Shown here: one piece after another, positions 1 to 16,545 of the stretch
How the letters are laid out: each line of letters opens with the position of its first letter
Numbering within the stretch: position 1 is the stretch's first letter
Source of the DNA: Candidatus Iainarchaeum sp.
GTDB taxonomy: Archaea; Iainarchaeota; Iainarchaeia; Iainarchaeales; DTGL01
NCBI GenBank assembly: GCA_038886995.1
Contig: JAWALG010000021.1
Location: forward strand, 1-19,636
Direction: 5' to 3'
DNA length: 19,636 nt
Position numbers and translations under genes: made by a program
Notes under the pieces: model-generated
What the model was told of the DNA's origin: nothing
Databases searched by the model: none
What the model saw: the letters and a program-made list of their open reading frames with translations, nothing else

Positions 1-388
1 CAAGGTTCTGACCCCACAAGTAATAGGGCAACGATATTTTATGCCTTATTGTTTCAAATATATCGCGATAGCAGTCATGTAAAAGCATTATCTTTCTTGG
101 TGCCTTTGCATATAGCCCAAAATAGTCACTGCTTATTACCAGGTCAAAGTATTTGGATTTTTTGTTAAAATAGCTCCCTAAAAGCTTAGCTTTGTATATT
201 TCCCTATGAGGAACAAACCTCAATGAAGAGAGGGTTGCTCTTTGCAACATATTTAGTTTAAGCTCGGAAAATGCAAAAACATCTACTTCATGGCCGCGAT
301 TCTCCAAAACATCAGAGAGCATTTTTACAAAAACTTCTGCACCACCAATAAACTTAATGCTATTTGGAAGCAAAAAAGCTATCCGCAT
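1..388 (-). CDS. Glycosyltransferase family 4 (GT-B), N-terminal part; runs off the left edge
   Basis: Not in the ORF track. Manual translation from ATG at 388 gives MRIAFLLPNSIKFIGGAEVFVKMLSDVLENRGHEVDVF..., the typical GT4 N-terminus (GGAE, RGHEV). SD GGTGA at 394-398. Overlaps the end of the GT2 gene. Confidence 0.85.
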   Translation of the reverse strand, partial: MRIAFLLPNSIKFIGGAEVFVKMLSDVLENRGHEVDVFAFSELKLNMLQRATLSSLRFVPHREIYKAKLLGSYFNKKSKYFDLVISSDYFGLYAKAPRKIMLLHDCYRDIFETIRHKISLPYYLWGQNL

Positions 389-1361
389 TGGAATCACCTT
401 TATAAGTTACCTCGGAACTTATTTTCAACCAATAATAAGCACTAGTTGGAACTAGCATTAAATATCTAACATAGAGAAAAAAGCAATATGCCAACAATTC
501 TGTAATCTTGTATTCTCTTTGTCTTGCCTTGGTAATTACATAAAAGACGCCAATAAGGGTGAATGGTATTGCCAATAGTATAAAAATTGGCACTAAAATT
601 GCCATGGCGTAAAAAAAAAGCAGTAGCCAAGCAAATAAGCCAAGAATAAAGTCCCTTATTAAGCGATAACCAAAATGCTCCTTGAAAAGTTTTGGAAATT
701 TTTTGTGAAGCAACAAATTATTCCTAACCATGTGTAAATTTTTTATTATTTGCAAAGGGCTAATTTTTTTTGCTGGGTGAAAAACTCTTACTTTAGGATC
801 AAAAACAATGTTGTACCCTGCTGATATTACTTTAAAGCCCAAGTCCGTATCTTCTGCAAAGTAGCAATACCTCTCATCAAAGCCTTTTGTCTCAATCAGA
901 ACGCTTCTTTTGAATGCATAATTAGCAGATATATACTTCTTGCCAGTAAGATTTTCCGGCGCTTGCTCATACAAATGCTTGTAGTTGCTATATATGAGAC
1001 CTTCTACTCCTGCAGCATCTTTATTTTTCCTAAAAGCCGCGCCCAAATTCTCCAGCCAGTCACTGTCAGGTATGCAATCATCGTCTGTAAATGCAATTAT
1101 TTCGCCTTTGGCTTTTTTTATTCCAAAGTTCCTTTTTGCATCACAGCATTTATTCTCAATCCTGTAGAATCTTACGCCTTTTTTGCGGAATTTTTTCTCA
1201 ACTATGTGTAGAGTATCATCCTGAGTATCACTAACGACAATCACTTCATATTTTTTCTTTGGATATGTTTGATTTAATATTGCATCTAATGCTACAGACA
1301 AACTTTCAGGCCTTTTGTGCGTTGGAATTACTACGCTAATTCTTGGCTTCAAATCAAACAC
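360..1361 (-). CDS. Glycosyltransferase family 2 with C-terminal TM helices
   Basis: ISVVIPTHKR, RNFGIKKAKGEIIAFTDDDC (DxD), GFDERY..AEDTD motifs; hydrophobic C-terminus; GTG start. Confidence 0.92.
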   Translation of the reverse strand: MFDLKPRISVVIPTHKRPESLSVALDAILNQTYPKKKYEVIVVSDTQDDTLHIVEKKFRKKGVRFYRIENKCCDAKRNFGIKKAKGEIIAFTDDDCIPDSDWLENLGAAFRKNKDAAGVEGLIYSNYKHLYEQAPENLTGKKYISANYAFKRSVLIETKGFDERYCYFAEDTDLGFKVISAGYNIVFDPKVRVFHPAKKISPLQIIKNLHMVRNNLLLHKKFPKLFKEHFGYRLIRDFILGLFAWLLLFFYAMAILVPIFILLAIPFTLIGVFYVITKARQREYKITELLAYCFFLYVRYLMLVPTSAYYWLKISSEVTYKGDSNADSFFASK

Positions 1362-1400
1362 CTAAACCAAACATCTGTTAAAATTAATTAAAATTTTCAA

Positions 1401-1415
1401 CGAAATGCTTAAATA
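1401..1415 (+). promoter_or_regulatory. Archaeal BRE/TATA promoter of the 1437 gene (likely leaderless)
   Basis: CGAAA (1401-1405) followed by CTTAAATA (1408-1415), about 22 nt before ATG 1437. Confidence 0.55.
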
Positions 1416-1436
1416 GATAAAAACAGTTATGCAATT

Positions 1437-2291
1437 ATGCCTAAAACGCCAAAAAAGCCTTCAAATGCACGCAGTAGTGCCGCAAAAGGCCCAGCCAAAA
1501 AGCCTACGGCGCGATATAAACCAGTTGCTGAGGCAATAATGAGGGAAACAATTCAGATTTTGCAAAGTAGGAAGCCGCGTGAAAAGAAGATTGAATTGTT
1601 GTCCGTTCAATCAGCCCTAATCAAAAGCCATATTAAAAGCGGCTTGATCCCTTGGCAAACAGGGAGACGCCTTTTGAGAGCGCTGCAACAAAAAACAGAG
1701 CTTAGCCTTAAGACAGAAACACTTTCTTTAGCTTATGCTGGTGTATATACCCCAAAATTATTTTTAGAACTTGAAGGCCTTGTTAAAAACAAGGTATTGA
1801 GCAGAGCAGGTGCAGCCAGATTGTCTGCCGAATATCTTCAAAAGCTTTTCTCAAGCAAAAAGATTTCACATGATCTGGTTGTTTTAGAAAAGCCAATTGA
1901 ATGGAAGCTTAAATTCATTGAGTTTAACCAAGCAGCATTAGAAAATACAGCAAAGCGCTTTGGGTTTACACAAGCAATGAAAGACAATATAAAAAGGAAG
2001 CTAATGCAGGTCACAGAAAAAGTCCTTGACTATGAAGCCAGGAAAACTATGCCGGTTGTGAACACTCAAATATTTGGCGCAATTGAGTACGCTAGAAAAA
2101 GCGGTTTGATAACAGAAGAGCAAAAAAATGCGTTGAGGCAAACTGCAATAAGGAGTCAGCTTAGAGACATGTTGGCTGGCAGGACAAAAACAGTTAACTA
2201 TGTTTACCTTGAATCTGAGATAAATCAGCTACCTGTTGATATGAGGGCTGACCTTATTGAACTCTTGAAGGAGCTAAGAGCCAGGTTTTAA
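1437..2291 (+). CDS. Hypothetical basic, alpha-helical protein with Lys/Pro/Ala-rich N-terminal tail
   Basis: 284-aa ORF with correctly spaced TATA box; no recognisable catalytic motif; N-terminus MPKTPKKPSNARSSAAKGPAKKP. Confidence 0.75.
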   Translation: MPKTPKKPSNARSSAAKGPAKKPTARYKPVAEAIMRETIQILQSRKPREKKIELLSVQSALIKSHIKSGLIPWQTGRRLLRALQQKTELSLKTETLSLAYAGVYTPKLFLELEGLVKNKVLSRAGAARLSAEYLQKLFSSKKISHDLVVLEKPIEWKLKFIEFNQAALENTAKRFGFTQAMKDNIKRKLMQVTEKVLDYEARKTMPVVNTQIFGAIEYARKSGLITEEQKNALRQTAIRSQLRDMLAGRTKTVNYVYLESEINQLPVDMRADLIELLKELRARF

Positions 2292-2561
2292 AGATTTGCA
2301 TTGTTTGCCCAAAATTTGAAAAAGTTCATAGTGTGTCTTTTCCCTAAACTCAAGAACCTTTTCCCTGGAGTGGCTACCAGAAATAATCTTCGGCCTTTCG
2401 CCAACAAGTTGTGAGAGTTCATCTATAAGCTCTTTATTAGCAAGTTCTTTTTCAGGTTTTGCTCTTAACGAAACAACCCACGCATTTCGCCATTCGTCAA
2501 ATCCCTTTACCTTAAATTTTTCTGAGCCAGGTATGATATGAAAGCTAACCTTTGCAGCCAT
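2274..2561 (-). CDS. DUF167 / UPF0235 (YggU-like) protein
   Basis: V.F.IIPGS...VSLRAKPEKELANKELI..LS....KIISGSHSREK matches the DUF167 pattern. Start moved to ATG 2561 (MAAKVSF) to avoid overlapping the upstream gene. Confidence 0.8.
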   Translation of the reverse strand: MAAKVSFHIIPGSEKFKVKGFDEWRNAWVVSLRAKPEKELANKELIDELSQLVGERPKIISGSHSREKVLEFREKTHYELFQILGKQCKSLKPGS

Positions 2562-2571
2562 ATTATTCGCC

Positions 2572-3231
2572 TTATTTGTTTTTCTTTTCACTAACATACA
2601 ATAGGTAGGAGTAAATGCAAAGAATAATTGATGAAATAATAATTGATAAAATTAATGCCAAAATTATTGTTGGTAACAAGTTGACTACCGTGACAACAAA
2701 CAAGAAAAGCAAACCATGGATAAGAAAAACAATGCTTCCTGCCTTATTAGTTTTTTCCCAGACCTTATCACTGCTTAAAGTCCATGGTGTCCTTATGCCA
2801 ACGAACCAGTTGCGCTTTGATTTTTTAAGCAAGAGTGAGATATAAATAAAGAGCAAGCCAAAAGCTGGAAGCAGAAAATGGTTGATTTCTACAGCATAGC
2901 CGAGGCCTGCTGCAATAATAAGCATGTGAATATAAAGTGAAAAAAAGCTAAAAACAACGATAAAGCCCTTAAAATATGGCATAAAAAACGAATAGTTCTT
3001 CTTTAAAGGATCCATCTTAGGCAGGTAGGCAAGAAGAATTACAATTAGAACTGAAAGAGCTGGCATGACCAACAATCCGAATTCTTTTTTCATATAGCCG
3101 TCAACTTCGCCTTTTATATTCCAATGCGTAGGAATTTGCTCCGGCAGCTTTGGGTAAAAGTATGTGCTTAACACAAAAAAAGAAGTCAATATCAGAATTA
3201 CCAAAAGCCAAAACTTATCTATGTGCAACAT
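2572..3231 (-). CDS. SdpI/YhfL-family immunity-type membrane protein (DUF1648 + SdpI)
   Basis: LPEQIPTHWNIKGEVDGY (DUF1648) and RNWFVGIRTPWTLSSDKVWEKTN (SdpI signature); multiple TM segments. Confidence 0.9.
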   Translation of the reverse strand: MLHIDKFWLLVILILTSFFVLSTYFYPKLPEQIPTHWNIKGEVDGYMKKEFGLLVMPALSVLIVILLAYLPKMDPLKKNYSFFMPYFKGFIVVFSFFSLYIHMLIIAAGLGYAVEINHFLLPAFGLLFIYISLLLKKSKRNWFVGIRTPWTLSSDKVWEKTNKAGSIVFLIHGLLFLFVVTVVNLLPTIILALILSIIISSIILCIYSYLLYVSEKKNK

Positions 3232-3234
3232 TTT

Positions 3235-4233
3235 TTATTCCCTCAGTAGTTTTTTCATTTCTTCGTAGCTTGGTGGCAAGCGATAGCCAATTGACGCAAT
3301 TATGCGCCTTTTTTCAGCAGGATCTGTTATTCCAAACCTTTCAAATGCCTTCTCAAGGTTTGCAATCTCCTTGTTCATAATTGTGCCCCTCAATAGCTCC
3401 CATTCGCTCTTGCTCATTCCTTTGAAAACCTTCGTTTGCAAGGATCTTAATGCCTTAATGTCGCCAAAGAAAATTCCTGCAAAAATTTTTTCCAATATGA
3501 TATGCCTTTCCCTTGGCATCACTGCTTCTGGATTTATGAAGCGCGTGCCAGCATCAAGTCTGATGCCATGTACCTTGCAAAGCTTTATTGCTTTCATCTC
3601 TATCTTTGGATTAGTACCAATAAAAATAACATCAATATCTGACTCGGGGGCAAAGTAGCCTTTTGCCATGCTGCCTCTCACGATCATTCCAACATAGCTC
3701 CGTCCGAATTTTTTTCTTAATTGAAGGTCTATTGCTTTTAGCTCACGGGCTTTTTCAAAAAGACCTTTTAAAAAGGGCGTTGCAACGTAAGGCCTAAGCC
3801 TTGTGAGAAGATATCTGTTAGCGTCGGAATTTGGTGCCTTTGTCTGCTTTGGTTTGCTTTTCTCAACCTCCTGAGTTGCAGCCATTTTTTCTTTGACAAA
3901 CATTAACTCCAAATTTATCCTTTTTCTATCTTCCGGGTTAAAGCTTTTGAGTGCTTGCGGAATGTGCTTTGCTAAAAATGACTGGCTAGTTGTAGAAAGA
4001 ACACTCATTGCGGCAGAGCGCATAGCCGGGTTTTCGCTTATAAGTGCAGCCAGTGCAACCTTGAGAGGCACACGCCTCCTGCCAAGAGCACGATAAAAAG
4101 CATGTTCTGGGCTTTTGTGCCAGATGTTTGCATGCGTTACTCTTATGCCTGCTTTTTTTGCATCTTTTACTTGCTGGGCTGCAATACTTGCCTGTTTAGC
4201 GTATTTTGTTCCTCTAATTCGCCTTTTTACCAT
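3235..4233 (-). CDS. Pol-beta superfamily nucleotidyltransferase-domain protein with long basic N-terminal extension
   Basis: GMIVRGSMAKGYFAPESDIDVIFIG is the hG[GS]x9-13DhD motif, at about residue 185-205, with a candidate third Asp in IRLD. Confidence 0.75.
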   Translation of the reverse strand: MVKRRIRGTKYAKQASIAAQQVKDAKKAGIRVTHANIWHKSPEHAFYRALGRRRVPLKVALAALISENPAMRSAAMSVLSTTSQSFLAKHIPQALKSFNPEDRKRINLELMFVKEKMAATQEVEKSKPKQTKAPNSDANRYLLTRLRPYVATPFLKGLFEKARELKAIDLQLRKKFGRSYVGMIVRGSMAKGYFAPESDIDVIFIGTNPKIEMKAIKLCKVHGIRLDAGTRFINPEAVMPRERHIILEKIFAGIFFGDIKALRSLQTKVFKGMSKSEWELLRGTIMNKEIANLEKAFERFGITDPAEKRRIIASIGYRLPPSYEEMKKLLRE

Positions 4234-4294
4234 AATGCAACCTTTCTCATTATGGTTTTTTTATTTTTTAATGCTTTTGTTTAACTATTCAATT

Positions 4295-4573
4295 ATGAAG
4301 ATATCCACTTATGGCTTCTTTGGTGTTTTAGCCTCAAAGACAAGGTTCTCAATAGTCAGGGCGCTAATGAAAGGAGAGCTTTCAGTAAAGGAAATATGTG
4401 CTAAAGTAAGATGCGAGCAAACAAATGTATCGCATCAGCTTAAAGTCCTTGAAAGGTATGGTGTTGTTTTTTATAAAAGGGATGGCAAAAAGAAGCTATA
4501 CGCAGTGAACGAGGAGGTAAAGCCAATTATCAAACAAGCTCAGAGGTTTATAAGGAAAAATTGCAAAAAATAG
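4295..4573 (+). CDS. ArsR/SmtB-family transcriptional regulator
   Basis: LASKTRFSIVRAL..GELSVKEI...EQTNVSHQLKVL..GVV...RDGK...Y winged HTH; start placed at ATG 4295 (92 aa). Confidence 0.88.
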   Translation: MKISTYGFFGVLASKTRFSIVRALMKGELSVKEICAKVRCEQTNVSHQLKVLERYGVVFYKRDGKKKLYAVNEEVKPIIKQAQRFIRKNCKK

Positions 4574-4576
4574 TGC

Positions 4577-5134
4577 TCACAAGTATTTGGCTTTTAGCCA
4601 GACAGCGAGTTTTTCAGCTGCTCTCGCTCTGTGCGATATCTTGTTTTTCTCTTTGCGCAGCATCATGCATAGTGGCTTTTTGCTTTTCACTGGCACAAAG
4701 ATTCTCTCGTATGGCATCACTTTTCTGTTTTTGCAGTAAACCTTTTGGGAAATTCTTCCTTTAAGCAATCCAACAAAAACTTTTTTGCGAGTTCCATCTG
4801 TAAAGCAAATCGCTGTCTTGAAGTAAGCTTTGCCGGATTTCTTTGAGGCCATTTTCAAAAGCCCTTCATAGCCAATTTTCTCAAATATGCGCTTAGCCCT
4901 TACCCCTGGGAAGTCGTGATAGCCCTCAAAAAATATTCCTGTGTCTTCAACAATTAGAGGTTTCTCAATTAGGGAATATGCCTCGGCTGCTTTGTGCCTT
5001 GCTATTTCGTCTATGCTACCATTGCAATCCTCAGAAAGCTCTGCCTTGTGCCACTTAAGCTCAATGCCGTACTCTGCTAAAATACGCTTTATTTCCAGGA
5101 ACTTTTGCTTATTGCCTGAAACGAAAAAAAGCAA
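4577..5134 (-). CDS. rdgB: Ham1/RdgB non-canonical purine NTP pyrophosphatase (XTP/dITP diphosphatase)
   Basis: SGNKQKFLE, A..KA, VEDTG, FPG, EKNKISHRARA motifs; TTG start preceded by AGGTG SD. Confidence 0.9.
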   Translation of the reverse strand: MLFFVSGNKQKFLEIKRILAEYGIELKWHKAELSEDCNGSIDEIARHKAAEAYSLIEKPLIVEDTGIFFEGYHDFPGVRAKRIFEKIGYEGLLKMASKKSGKAYFKTAICFTDGTRKKVFVGLLKGRISQKVYCKNRKVMPYERIFVPVKSKKPLCMMLRKEKNKISHRARAAEKLAVWLKAKYL

Positions 5135-5409: not shown

Positions 5410-5991
5410 CTACAAAAATGTTTTAAAAACAATGAGTTCCTCAAAAAAGAGGCGCTGCCTTGCTATGATCCTAAAATTTGCCTTCAATGATTTAAGCTTT
5501 TCTTTTGTAGCTGCTTCCCCTGTAATGCTGCTCTGAACAAAATACGCGCAACCTTTTTTTGTGAGAAACTCTGGCAGCTTAACCAGAAACTTAAAAAGAA
5601 TCTCATTACCTTTTTTACCACCATCCAATGCTTTGTCTTTTTTGCCCTCAATTGGAAGATAAGGTGGATTAAAAACAATGCACTCGAACTTTTGCCCTAG
5701 CACTGGCTCAAAAAGGTCTCCTTGCACAACCTTTGCTTTTGAGGAAAAACCTAGGCGCTTTATGTTTTCTTCTGTATTTCTGACTGCATCATCATTAATA
5801 TCAACAGCAGTAACATTGGCTCCTTGCATTAGCATGTTAATTGTCTGAATTCCACAGCCACAGCCAATATCAAGGGCTTCTGCATTGGGTGTAACTTTTA
5901 CATTTTCTGCCAAAAGAAATGAGTCCTCTGCTGGCTCATATATTGAATCGTAGACAATTAGCTCAAAACCCCTGAAAAAAACTTTCCTCAT
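5410..5991 (-). CDS. HemK2/MTQ2-family (release factor glutamine) methyltransferase
   Basis: YEPAEDSFLL, LDIGCGCG (SAM binding), VDIN, FNPPYLP, LDGG..G motifs; ATG at 5991 (alternative TTG 5997). Confidence 0.9.
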   Translation of the reverse strand: MRKVFFRGFELIVYDSIYEPAEDSFLLAENVKVTPNAEALDIGCGCGIQTINMLMQGANVTAVDINDDAVRNTEENIKRLGFSSKAKVVQGDLFEPVLGQKFECIVFNPPYLPIEGKKDKALDGGKKGNEILFKFLVKLPEFLTKKGCAYFVQSSITGEAATKEKLKSLKANFRIIARQRLFFEELIVFKTFL

Positions 5992-6017
5992 TTGCAAAAG
6001 CTAATAAACCAAACAAA

Positions 6018-6023
6018 TTTAAA
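6018..6023. promoter_or_regulatory. Palindromic TATA element, possibly bidirectional (HemK2 operon on -, ncRNA candidate on +)
   Basis: TTTAAA lies about 27 nt from ATG 5991 and about 22 nt from the first base of the 6045 stem; A-rich BRE-like sequence on its left. Confidence 0.45.
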
Positions 6024-6044
6024 CATTGGCGCACTTAAGTTAAT

Positions 6045-6126
6045 AGCGGATTGGCAGACCTGGTTTGATTGGTTTAAAGACCAGCAAAACCAACTCTCTT
6101 AGCAGCATACTGCCAATCCGCTTTTT
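6045..6126 (+). ncRNA. Putative small structured non-coding RNA of unknown family (~78 nt plus U-tract)
   Basis: Perfect 13-bp terminal stem AGCGGATTGGCAG (6045-6057) / CTGCCAATCCGCT (6110-6122); internal pairing within 6060-6093; TATA upstream; T5 at 6122-6126; no ORF. Confidence 0.6.
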
Positions 6127-6215
6127 AGCATTAATCCTTGCTTAAACGCTGTTGGCATTAATATTATATACTACTTTTTGCATCCTATCTTTAATTTTGA
6201 AAAGGAGGTATTGCT

Positions 6216-6665
6216 GTGTTTGGATTTGGAAAAGGAAAAATAGATCTGCAGCTTGAAAAGTTTAATTACCACCCAGGGGAAACAATTAAGGGAAAGGTAA
6301 TCCTCGCCCTCAATAAGCCAGTAAAAGCTAGGCGCCTTAAGGTAAGATTTTTTGGGGAAAGGCAAAAGAGAGAAACTGTCGTGGTTGGCAGCCGTAGATC
6401 TACTGATTATAGCAACGAGATTGTGTATTCCTTTGAAATGAACCTTGATGGAGAAAAAGAGTATATTGGCAGGGAATATAACTTTGAAATAATAATACCA
6501 CAAGACCTTACGGCAAAGGTTGATTTAAGCAATGCTGGCGCTTTAGGTGCAGTGATGCAATTTGCAATGTCAATGGCACCTAAGCCAAGGTGGTTTGTGG
6601 AAGCAGCCCTAGATGTGCCAATGGGCTTTGATGTAGCAAAAAAGCTTCAGATAAACATTGGCTAA
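6216..6665 (+). CDS. Arrestin-N / SpoOM-like beta-sandwich protein
   Basis: Strong SD GGAGGT (6204-6209) with GTG start; pattern I.L.L....Y.PGETIKGKV.L....PVKAR.L.V.F.G.....YNFEIIIP...W.VEA.LDVP resembles the arrestin-N/SpoOM fold. Confidence 0.65.
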   Translation: MFGFGKGKIDLQLEKFNYHPGETIKGKVILALNKPVKARRLKVRFFGERQKRETVVVGSRRSTDYSNEIVYSFEMNLDGEKEYIGREYNFEIIIPQDLTAKVDLSNAGALGAVMQFAMSMAPKPRWFVEAALDVPMGFDVAKKLQINIG

Positions 6666-16365: not shown

Positions 16366-16442
16366 TTTTGTCGCTTTGGGGCAATGCATTTTATAATTTA
16401 GTTTTTATATACTATTTTAATAATCATACTAACATGTACCAT

Positions 16443-16526
16443 GCACGGGTGTCCGAGTGGCCAAAGGAGCAGGGCTTAGGACCCTGCGGCTTAGTGCCTT
16501 CCCAGGTTCGAATCCTGGCCCGTGCA
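16443..16526 (+). tRNA. tRNA-Leu (anticodon TAG), intronless, CCA not encoded
   Basis: Acceptor GCACGGG/CCCGTGC + discriminator A; anticodon arm CAGGG-CTTAGGA-CCCTG; long variable arm GGC-TTAGT-GCC; T arm CCAGG-TTCGAAT-CCTGG. Confidence 0.97.
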
Positions 16527-16545
16527 ATAAGCCAAAGAGTCAACT

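Follow-up and report, generated by a model that had tools for sequence, protein, structure and literature searches.

A candidate trans-acting antisense small RNA family of the Iainarchaeota, predicted to pair with the 5' ends of mRNAs

The 19,636-nucleotide stretch of Candidatus Iainarchaeum sp. DNA analysed here (the window, contig C21 of an 866-kb genome, designated G000, that is 88.6% complete) contains, at positions 6045-6122 of the + strand, a unit that is moderately likely to be a trans-acting antisense small RNA of about 78 nt, a member of an Iainarchaeota family whose sequence suggests that it masks the 5' end and start codon of its mRNA partners. The unit carries a conserved and accessible seed that is complementary to the start regions of unlinked mRNAs, and this relation is kept across species, as would be expected of a base-pairing small RNA. 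The structure of the unit and its conservation, the strand, the complementarity to these messages and the co-occurrence of that complementarity with the RNA across genomes were each computed, and are described below.

Location and architecture of the unit

The unit lies between a divergent gene for an MTS-type methyltransferase on its 5' side (5410-5997, - strand) and a gene for an arrestin-fold protein on its 3' side (6216-6665, + strand). The latter encodes an archaeal protein of 149 aa with a match to the N-terminal arrestin domain (PF00339, E 1.9e-8) and a weaker one to the C-terminal domain. The gap between the two genes measures 218 nt (5998-6215); with the methyltransferase start placed at the ATG at 5991, it would be 224 nt. 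A preliminary description made from the sequence had called this gap unusually long, and it is indeed among the longer gaps of the window, but it is not unique, as the gap at 2292-2571 is longer and three others measure about 180-207 nt. The unit is present as one copy in the 866-kb genome, and its GC content of 0.474 compares with 0.286 for the rest of the gap and 0.39 for the window.

Upstream of the unit is a TATA-like box, TTTAAA (6018-6023, +), which is preceded by an A-rich ACAAA and is situated 21 nt 5' of the first paired base. The box is a palindrome, and on the - strand the ATG of the divergent methyltransferase gene (5991) follows it at a distance of 26-27 nt; judged by its position, the box may serve the small-RNA unit, the methyltransferase gene or both, as a shared bidirectional TATA box. 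The predicted body of the RNA (78 nt, 6045-6122, +) is supported by its fold and by near-identical full-length copies in two related genomes, G002 and G004. It is enclosed by a closing stem, P1, of 13 perfect base pairs, in which the 3' arm CTGCCAATCCGCT (6110-6122) is the exact reverse complement of the 5' arm AGCGGATTGGCAG (6045-6057). An inner hairpin region, P2 (6060-6092), takes a lineage-specific form with two UGGUUU copies (TGGTTT in the DNA, 6061-6066 and 6070-6075) and pairs with, and hides, the sequence AAACCA; two ACCA copies lie at 6080-6083 and 6089-6092. The conserved seed AACCAACUCUCUUAGCAGCAU follows at 6088-6108, its first part (6088-6104) being identical or different by at most one base across genera, and overlaps a 17-nt stretch, ACTCTCTTAGCAGCATA (6093-6109), that is predicted to be mostly unpaired. 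A run of five T residues at 6122-6126 is a likely archaeal termination signal. The perfect stem, the TTTAAA box, the T run, the TGGTTT and ACCA copies and the GC-richer character of the unit had all been reported in the preliminary description, and each was confirmed on re-reading.

The + strand of 6045-6122 folds with a predicted energy of -33.1 kcal/mol (z = -5.79), which none of 200 shuffled sequences equalled. The - strand folds equally well (-34.7, z = -5.0), and the strand is thus not given by the fold alone. Within the + strand fold, the AAACCA at 6087-6092, the 5' part of the conserved strand, is paired in the inner hairpin and leaves 6093-6109 free; the mean unpaired probability is 0.75 for 6093-6109 vs 0.08 for 6087-6092, in keeping with the unpaired strand of about 17 nt originally proposed. 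A switch between a hairpin and a pseudoknot, proposed at the same time for the inner region, was not supported. The two TGGTTT copies are confined to G000, G002 and G004, and the single difference among these is compatible with both folds. Outside these three genomes, family members have a plain hairpin or none in place of the double-TGGTTT region, and in other genera a hairpin of the GAAUUCUU..AAGAAUUC type occupies the P2 position.

Comparison with known RNA classes

Searched against Rfam 15 at the gathering level, the window gave no matches at this locus or elsewhere, and a search of 5950-6260 returned only miRNA and CRISPR-repeat models far below threshold (E 0.55-7.6). The preliminary description had found no match to the common RNA classes, and here no Rfam family reached its gathering threshold; the sequence evidence supports a stand-alone structured small-RNA gene, on the + strand, outside any curated family.

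Individual classes were also considered in turn. The only tRNA called by ARAGORN in the window is a tRNA-Leu at 16442-16527; this call is 86 nt long, and the whole-window Rfam scan at the gathering level lists no match to a tRNA model. The 5S, SRP and RNase P RNAs, of which a genome is expected to have one functional copy each, were all found elsewhere in the genome above threshold, and both large rRNAs are likewise located elsewhere than the unit. On contig C7, within 7-5104, one strand carries the 16S rRNA (7-1494), the 23S rRNA (1782-4751) and, only about 90 nt past the latter, the RNase P RNA (4845-5104) in head-to-tail order; the 5S rRNA stands apart at 34592-34708. A C/D-box sRNA would be expected to have a C box (RUGAUGA) near its 5' end and a D box (CUGA) near its 3' end, and both TGATGA and CTGA are absent from 6045-6122. 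An H/ACA sRNA, which would have ACA 3 nt from its 3' end, past the lower stem, and a pocket made by the two strands of an internal loop, was rejected as well: the TTTTTAGC that follows the stem contains no ACA, and the loop is one-sided and invariant rather than variable.

Distribution of the family

A BLAST search against 60 relatives recovered full-length copies in two genomes of the genus, G002 (98%) and G004 (94%), together with many further 100%-identical matches that are limited to query positions 49-69. These short matches share one invariant string, ACCAACTCTCTTAGCA, each inside a different GC-rich stem, and the loci around it have an AT box upstream and often a T-run after. The family is described here by an invariant strand of 17-21 nt, AACCAACUCUCUUAGCA(GCA), corresponding to window positions 6088-6108 and held inside GC-rich closing stems. 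With up to one mismatch allowed, the 17-mer AACCAACTCTCTTAGCA occurs 57 times in 32 of the 196 genomes of the order, compared with three occurrences of a reversed-pattern control, and is present in 11 of 12 other genomes of the taxonomic family to which G000 belongs and in 19 of 73 genera. Among the GTDB species genomes, the exact 18-mer was found at 21 loci, comprising 17 archaeal MAGs, titled Ca. Iainarchaeum, (Ca.) Diapherotrites or archaeon, and four bacterial ones. Of 24 metagenomic loci with the exact 18-mer, reading of the sequences assigned 12 to the present RNA type and two to a second type, the other ten being unrelated. Within the range searched, the small-RNA family appears to be restricted to the Iainarchaeota (Diapherotrites, DPANN), and the presence of members across this lineage bears out the original suggestion of a new family. 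Near-identical DNA of the locus itself is present in hot-spring metagenomes, and divergent strain contigs cover it in two other hot-spring metagenomes. A strain contig labelled X3 has 41 differences over 5700-6245; 37 are listed, and none of these falls in 6036-6150. No RNA data set was listed as containing the region, and a metatranscriptome from the same study yielded no contig over 5700-6500, an outcome that weighs neither for nor against expression.

Some genomes have several copies of the present RNA type, G009 having three or four and G010 four. Three copies were examined in G009 (L074, L075, L051), and two of them, L074 and L051, are each followed after about 75 nt by a paralogous lipoprotein gene (MKKDRFGLLIV...); the two copies on contig C64 of this genome are 2.7 kb apart. 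Two of the copies in G010 (L077-L079) are at contig ends.

The same motif is also found in a second RNA scaffold, in other families of the order (L027, L040-L044, L054, L055, L057-L059, L062, L173, L184). Its layout consists of a TATATA box, a hairpin GAACUUAG..GGUGAGCCUAUCCCAAUU..CUAAGUUC, the motif, a further hairpin GGGAAAGA..UCUUUCCC and then CUAUUUUCC. Seven loci of this scaffold searched against Rfam gave nothing above threshold; an sbrA match with E 0.018 scored 29 bits, where the threshold is 45, and is at the level of chance.

Conservation of the closing stem and the coding strand

Members of the family share a common plan, in which P1 is followed by a short linker, P2 (usually GAAUUCUU..AAGAAUUC), the invariant strand, in some members a third hairpin, and finally the second arm of P1. 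The motif is surrounded by about 13 different P1 sequences, whose pairing is kept across genera. A Watson-Crick P1 score of at least 15 was obtained for 15 of 24 members, where the 99th percentile of 1500 random genome positions is 14. In an alignment of a seven-sequence subfamily, which leaves out the RNA of G000 itself, both sides have changed in six of the 15 P1 pairs, and pairing is kept in 93.7% of cells, compared with 28-53% for slid partners; none of 500 shuffles reached the observed count. The statistics on P1 rest on this alignment and on per-sequence stem controls. A MAFFT alignment of 15 members (A1) had closing stems out of register and was kept out of the analysis, and a covariance model built from four sequences (R1) performed poorly on members with extra hairpins and took reverse strands, so that the alignment A4 was kept out of the statistics.

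The P1 of G000 is invariant in its close copies except for one G.U pair in G004, which on the - strand equals a C.A mismatch. Across the family, P1 is lengthened by G.U pairs in 14 of 21 members and by the opposite-strand equivalent, A.C, in three of 21, a difference that supports the + orientation first proposed from such G-U pairs. Sequence signals at the two ends were also surveyed, and the TATA-like boxes and T-runs are on the + side, in line with this orientation. An A/T hexamer ends 15-30 nt upstream of P1 in 20 of 21 members, which is a weak test in AT-rich spacers, and at least four T residues occur within 12 nt after P1 in 11 of 21.

Complementarity to mRNA start regions

In several relatives, the reverse complement of the motif forms the start of an open reading frame that encodes a lipoprotein signal peptide and lies behind a TATA-like box. 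Within G000, 6085-6109 was compared with positions -5 to +25 of 15,948 candidate ORF starts. The best duplex, at -28.9 kcal/mol, was with the gene at C3:6199; the runner-up reached -25.3, and the mean was -7.7 (sd 3.0). The best match lay between -20.4 and -27.8 for each of 11 shuffled seeds and at -22.4 for the reversed seed. As one of the 11 shuffled seeds reached -27.8 vs the observed -28.9, the in-genome energy scan alone is only modestly significant. The start of the C3:6199 gene, AUGCUGCUGAGAGAGU, pairs with 6093-6108 over 16 bp that include one G.U. Its 120-aa product combines a membrane helix at the N-terminus with an OB fold (PF01336, E 4.8e-9), and the gene sits between a DUF2101 gene and a TctA-family gene. 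A second candidate target, at C18:14173 on the - strand, is a lipoprotein gene; its open frame codes for about 1346 aa without a Pfam match, and its start pairs with the seed more weakly, over 11 bp. These two genes are unlinked and unrelated (PF01336 vs no Pfam match), and in both the reverse complementarity spans the first 12-23 nt, AUG included.

Orthologues of both genes were then compared between genomes with and without the RNA, their start codons being assigned by a simple rule. OB-fold orthologues were present in 33 of 41 genomes, G000 included; 30 with loci were analysed, and five weaker matches without loci were excluded. In all 16 genomes that carry the present RNA type, the orthologue start pairs with the seed at -17.8 to -37.0 kcal/mol (the start in G001 and G005, for example, is AUGCUGCUAAGAGAGUACUGGUUG), whereas in the 14 other genomes the values are -2.7 to -12.5 and the proteins start MEFDDF, MELSDQ etc. 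For the lipoprotein, 30 loci were available, of which 25 were parsed; five were without an ATG by the rule, leaving 20 for analysis. The corresponding energies are -19.1 to -32.6 in all 11 carriers vs -5.3 to -16.9 in all nine non-carriers. The carrier genomes are relatives, from families f1, f5, f12, f19 and f29, and few independent events therefore lie behind the split of 16/16 vs 0/14.

The bases GCUAAGAGAGUUG are read as MLRELV in most lipoprotein orthologues and, in another frame, as MAKRVA in G016; the lipoprotein start in G023, AUGCGGAGAGUUGG, is read as MRRVG. Because G016 and G023 read the target bases as other peptides, the constraint is on the nucleotides and not on the peptide. Co-variation between seed and target is mixed. 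In G003 it is compensatory, with A to G in the seed and U to C in the target, yet in G006, G011 and G012 the target has the same C as in G003 and the seed A is unchanged.

Counted on the upstream sequences, the distance from the end of the TATA-like box to the target ATG is about 21-26 nt. Established archaeal promoter geometry predicts such a spacing for leaderless or nearly leaderless mRNAs, and on this ground the OB-fold and lipoprotein mRNAs are probably leaderless. The complementary tag is also seen at the 5' end of further genes. One, at L069 (G001:C10), is ferredoxin-like (4Fe-4S) and has the tag before the ATG as a short leader; another, at L063 (G016:C40), encodes a membrane protein that starts MLRELVEVKK; a third, at L065 (G005:C39), encodes a zinc-ribbon protein that starts (GTG)AKRVG, in another frame.

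The preliminary description had raised the idea that the exposed strand acts as a guide or a template. The guide idea gains support, in that it is the unpaired strand which stays invariant across the family and which complements specific mRNA 5' ends. A search of G000 for 19-nt complements, in which G.U pairs were counted, gave no site in an rRNA or tRNA; on the rRNA contig the top match (16/19) is at chance level, and a simple guide role towards rRNA or tRNA is not borne out. For a template role nothing was found in favour.

A minus-strand element bearing the tag

A second copy of the motif in G000 lies on contig C4, at about 27750-27830, adjoining a small ribbon-helix-helix gene, and the same arrangement is seen at L072, L066, L070 and L068. 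Read on the minus strand, this element comprises an AT box, the target-like tag UUGCUGAGAGAGUUGGUU, a hairpin and a U-run, and owing to G.U pairs its hairpin is better paired on that strand in three of five genomes. Genome-wide, no other non-self site complements the 19-nt motif as well as C4:27801(-), where 18 of 19 positions pair. The element may be a decoy RNA or else a very short leaderless ORF.

Proposed mechanism

The GC-rich closing stem and the inner hairpin would together hold out the single strand of the RNA, which would pair with a small number of probably leaderless mRNAs at their very 5' end, over the AUG and the first four to seven codons. Partners predicted in its own genome are the OB-fold gene at C3:6199 (16 bp) and, more weakly, the lipoprotein gene at C18:14173 (11 bp). 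If the unit is transcribed and the pairing takes place in the cell, a duplex that covers the AUG at the very start of a leaderless mRNA would be expected to block ribosome loading and so to cause repression; the sign of the effect may also differ, as protection or destabilisation of the mRNA would be an equally possible outcome.

Alternative explanations

The strand might instead be a protein-binding or self-contained element, with its complementarity a relic of an inverted copy of a gene 5' end that has no present function. That the strand is invariant over genera, beyond the needs of simple pairing, that seed and target co-vary imperfectly, and that the motif recurs in the second scaffold, where G013 and G021 have the OB-fold orthologue locus with a start that is not complementary to the seed, would all suit such an element. 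A relic, on the other hand, is expected to decay at synonymous sites, and two unrelated genes keep the complement, in different frames, only where the RNA exists; this explanation is judged rather unlikely. A DNA site common to both places, such as a transcription-factor operator or a recombination site at the target transcription start and in the RNA locus, could also account for a shared 17-21 bp. Archaeal repressors often bind just after the TATA box, which is where the motif is placed in the target genes. The motif is not palindromic, however, and at the RNA loci its orientation is in every case opposite to that of the local promoter, from which it lies 35-55 nt downstream, and it is framed by co-varying stems with G.U pairs that are relevant only in RNA, all of which makes a DNA site quite improbable.

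The antisense reading of the unit could also hold with another main partner, namely the minus-strand small RNA by the ribbon-helix-helix gene (C4, about 27750-27801), in a toxin-antitoxin- or decoy-type antisense pair. The near-perfect complement at C4:27801(-) speaks for this, as does conservation of the element, with its own AT box, hairpin and U-run, in five genomes of the genus. Its open frames, of 11-24 codons, are conserved in neither length nor sequence, the element is seen in one genus only whereas the RNA family is wider, and the tagged OB-fold and lipoprotein genes would be left unexplained, so that C4 as the main partner is given a slender probability, a shade below that of the DNA site. 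An action in cis, as an attenuator of the arrestin-like gene (the role first suggested) or as a terminator or 3' element of the upstream gene, would draw on the finding that 10 of 17 clustered loci have a porB homologue upstream on the same strand, and that in eight of these its frame ends about 75-170 nt before the motif, P1 starting soon after. A riboswitch or attenuator should keep a constant leader position; the genes downstream vary between genera, as do the contexts at large, and each copy has its own AT box. The unit in the window stands between divergent genes, the porB of G000 (C20) has no such element behind it, and the arrestin-like gene has its own AT box and GGAGGT. Attenuation of this gene is thus not supported, and a cis element of any neighbour is very improbable. 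Finally, the terminal inverted arms, the several copies in some relatives and the few copies at contig ends might recall a mobile repeat (MITE), or the arms a chance inverted repeat. A MITE should have many copies and conserved terminal repeats, but G000 has a single copy, and in the family the arms differ and the interior is fixed, the reverse of a MITE; the target-site duplications that would mark one were not noticed in the flanks inspected. The probability of such a repeat is negligible.

Relation to known small RNAs

The trans-acting antisense RNA proposed here has parallels in both bacteria and archaea. Bacterial sibling sRNAs such as Qrr1-5 and OmrA/B have an invariant seed in otherwise divergent scaffolds and occur as several paralogous copies. 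The present family resembles them in its invariant seed and divergent scaffolds, and in the four copies of G010 and the three or four of G009; it differs in being archaeal, with no Hfq-type context known, and in having a longer seed (16-21 nt), placed in an internal loop that is closed by a long terminal stem. Among described RNAs, the closest in kind is sRNA162 of Methanosarcina mazei, an archaeal sRNA that acts both in trans and in cis and in which, according to the available text of PMC4152357, a single-stranded linker between structured parts pairs with the start region of a trans mRNA, start codon included, and lowers translation. The RNA described here similarly has a single strand between structured parts that is predicted to pair at the translation start of a trans mRNA. 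Unlike sRNA162, which masks the RBS in a long 5' UTR in that account (PMC4152357), it has predicted targets with no or almost no leader; moreover, the two RNAs share no sequence similarity, and the pairing of the present RNA is a prediction from its sequence. The same text (PMC4152357) notes that on leaderless mRNAs sRNA motifs must lie in the ORF or 3' UTR, and the interactions it gives as known for Sulfolobus and Haloferax sRNAs on leaderless mRNAs are in 3' UTRs. The present family would likewise be an archaeal base-pairing sRNA acting on predicted leaderless transcripts, with its predicted site in the first 12-23 nt of the ORF rather than in a 3' UTR as in those examples (PMC4152357).

The family is classed as a new RNA family of a known sRNA type with an unusual target site. 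It is rated as new because full-text literature searches on Iainarchaeota, Diapherotrites and DPANN found no work on small RNAs or, for Iainarchaeota and Diapherotrites, on RNA-based regulation. To our knowledge, these archaea are not growable alone and have few recognisable regulators.

A broader and distinctly tentative reading, which we regard as possible but doubtful, is that leaderless surface and membrane messages in the Iainarchaeota bear a 5'-terminal address tag of 12-23 nt, (A)UGCU(GCU)AAGAGAGUUGGUU, in any frame, which would be read by sibling sRNAs that share one seed and buffered, in one genus, by the C4 decoy RNA. If true, this would amount to a compact post-transcriptional regulon of the cell envelope in a reduced-genome archaeon, and to sRNA control at the 5'-terminal AUG of leaderless mRNAs, which is absent from the descriptions in the available text of PMC4152357. 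The finding itself offers a sequence-defined candidate regulator together with two conserved candidate targets in the cell envelope, and a testable mechanism in which a leaderless mRNA would be controlled at its first bases. In new genomes, the conserved seed and its complementary tag provide a simple handle for a search for the regulon.
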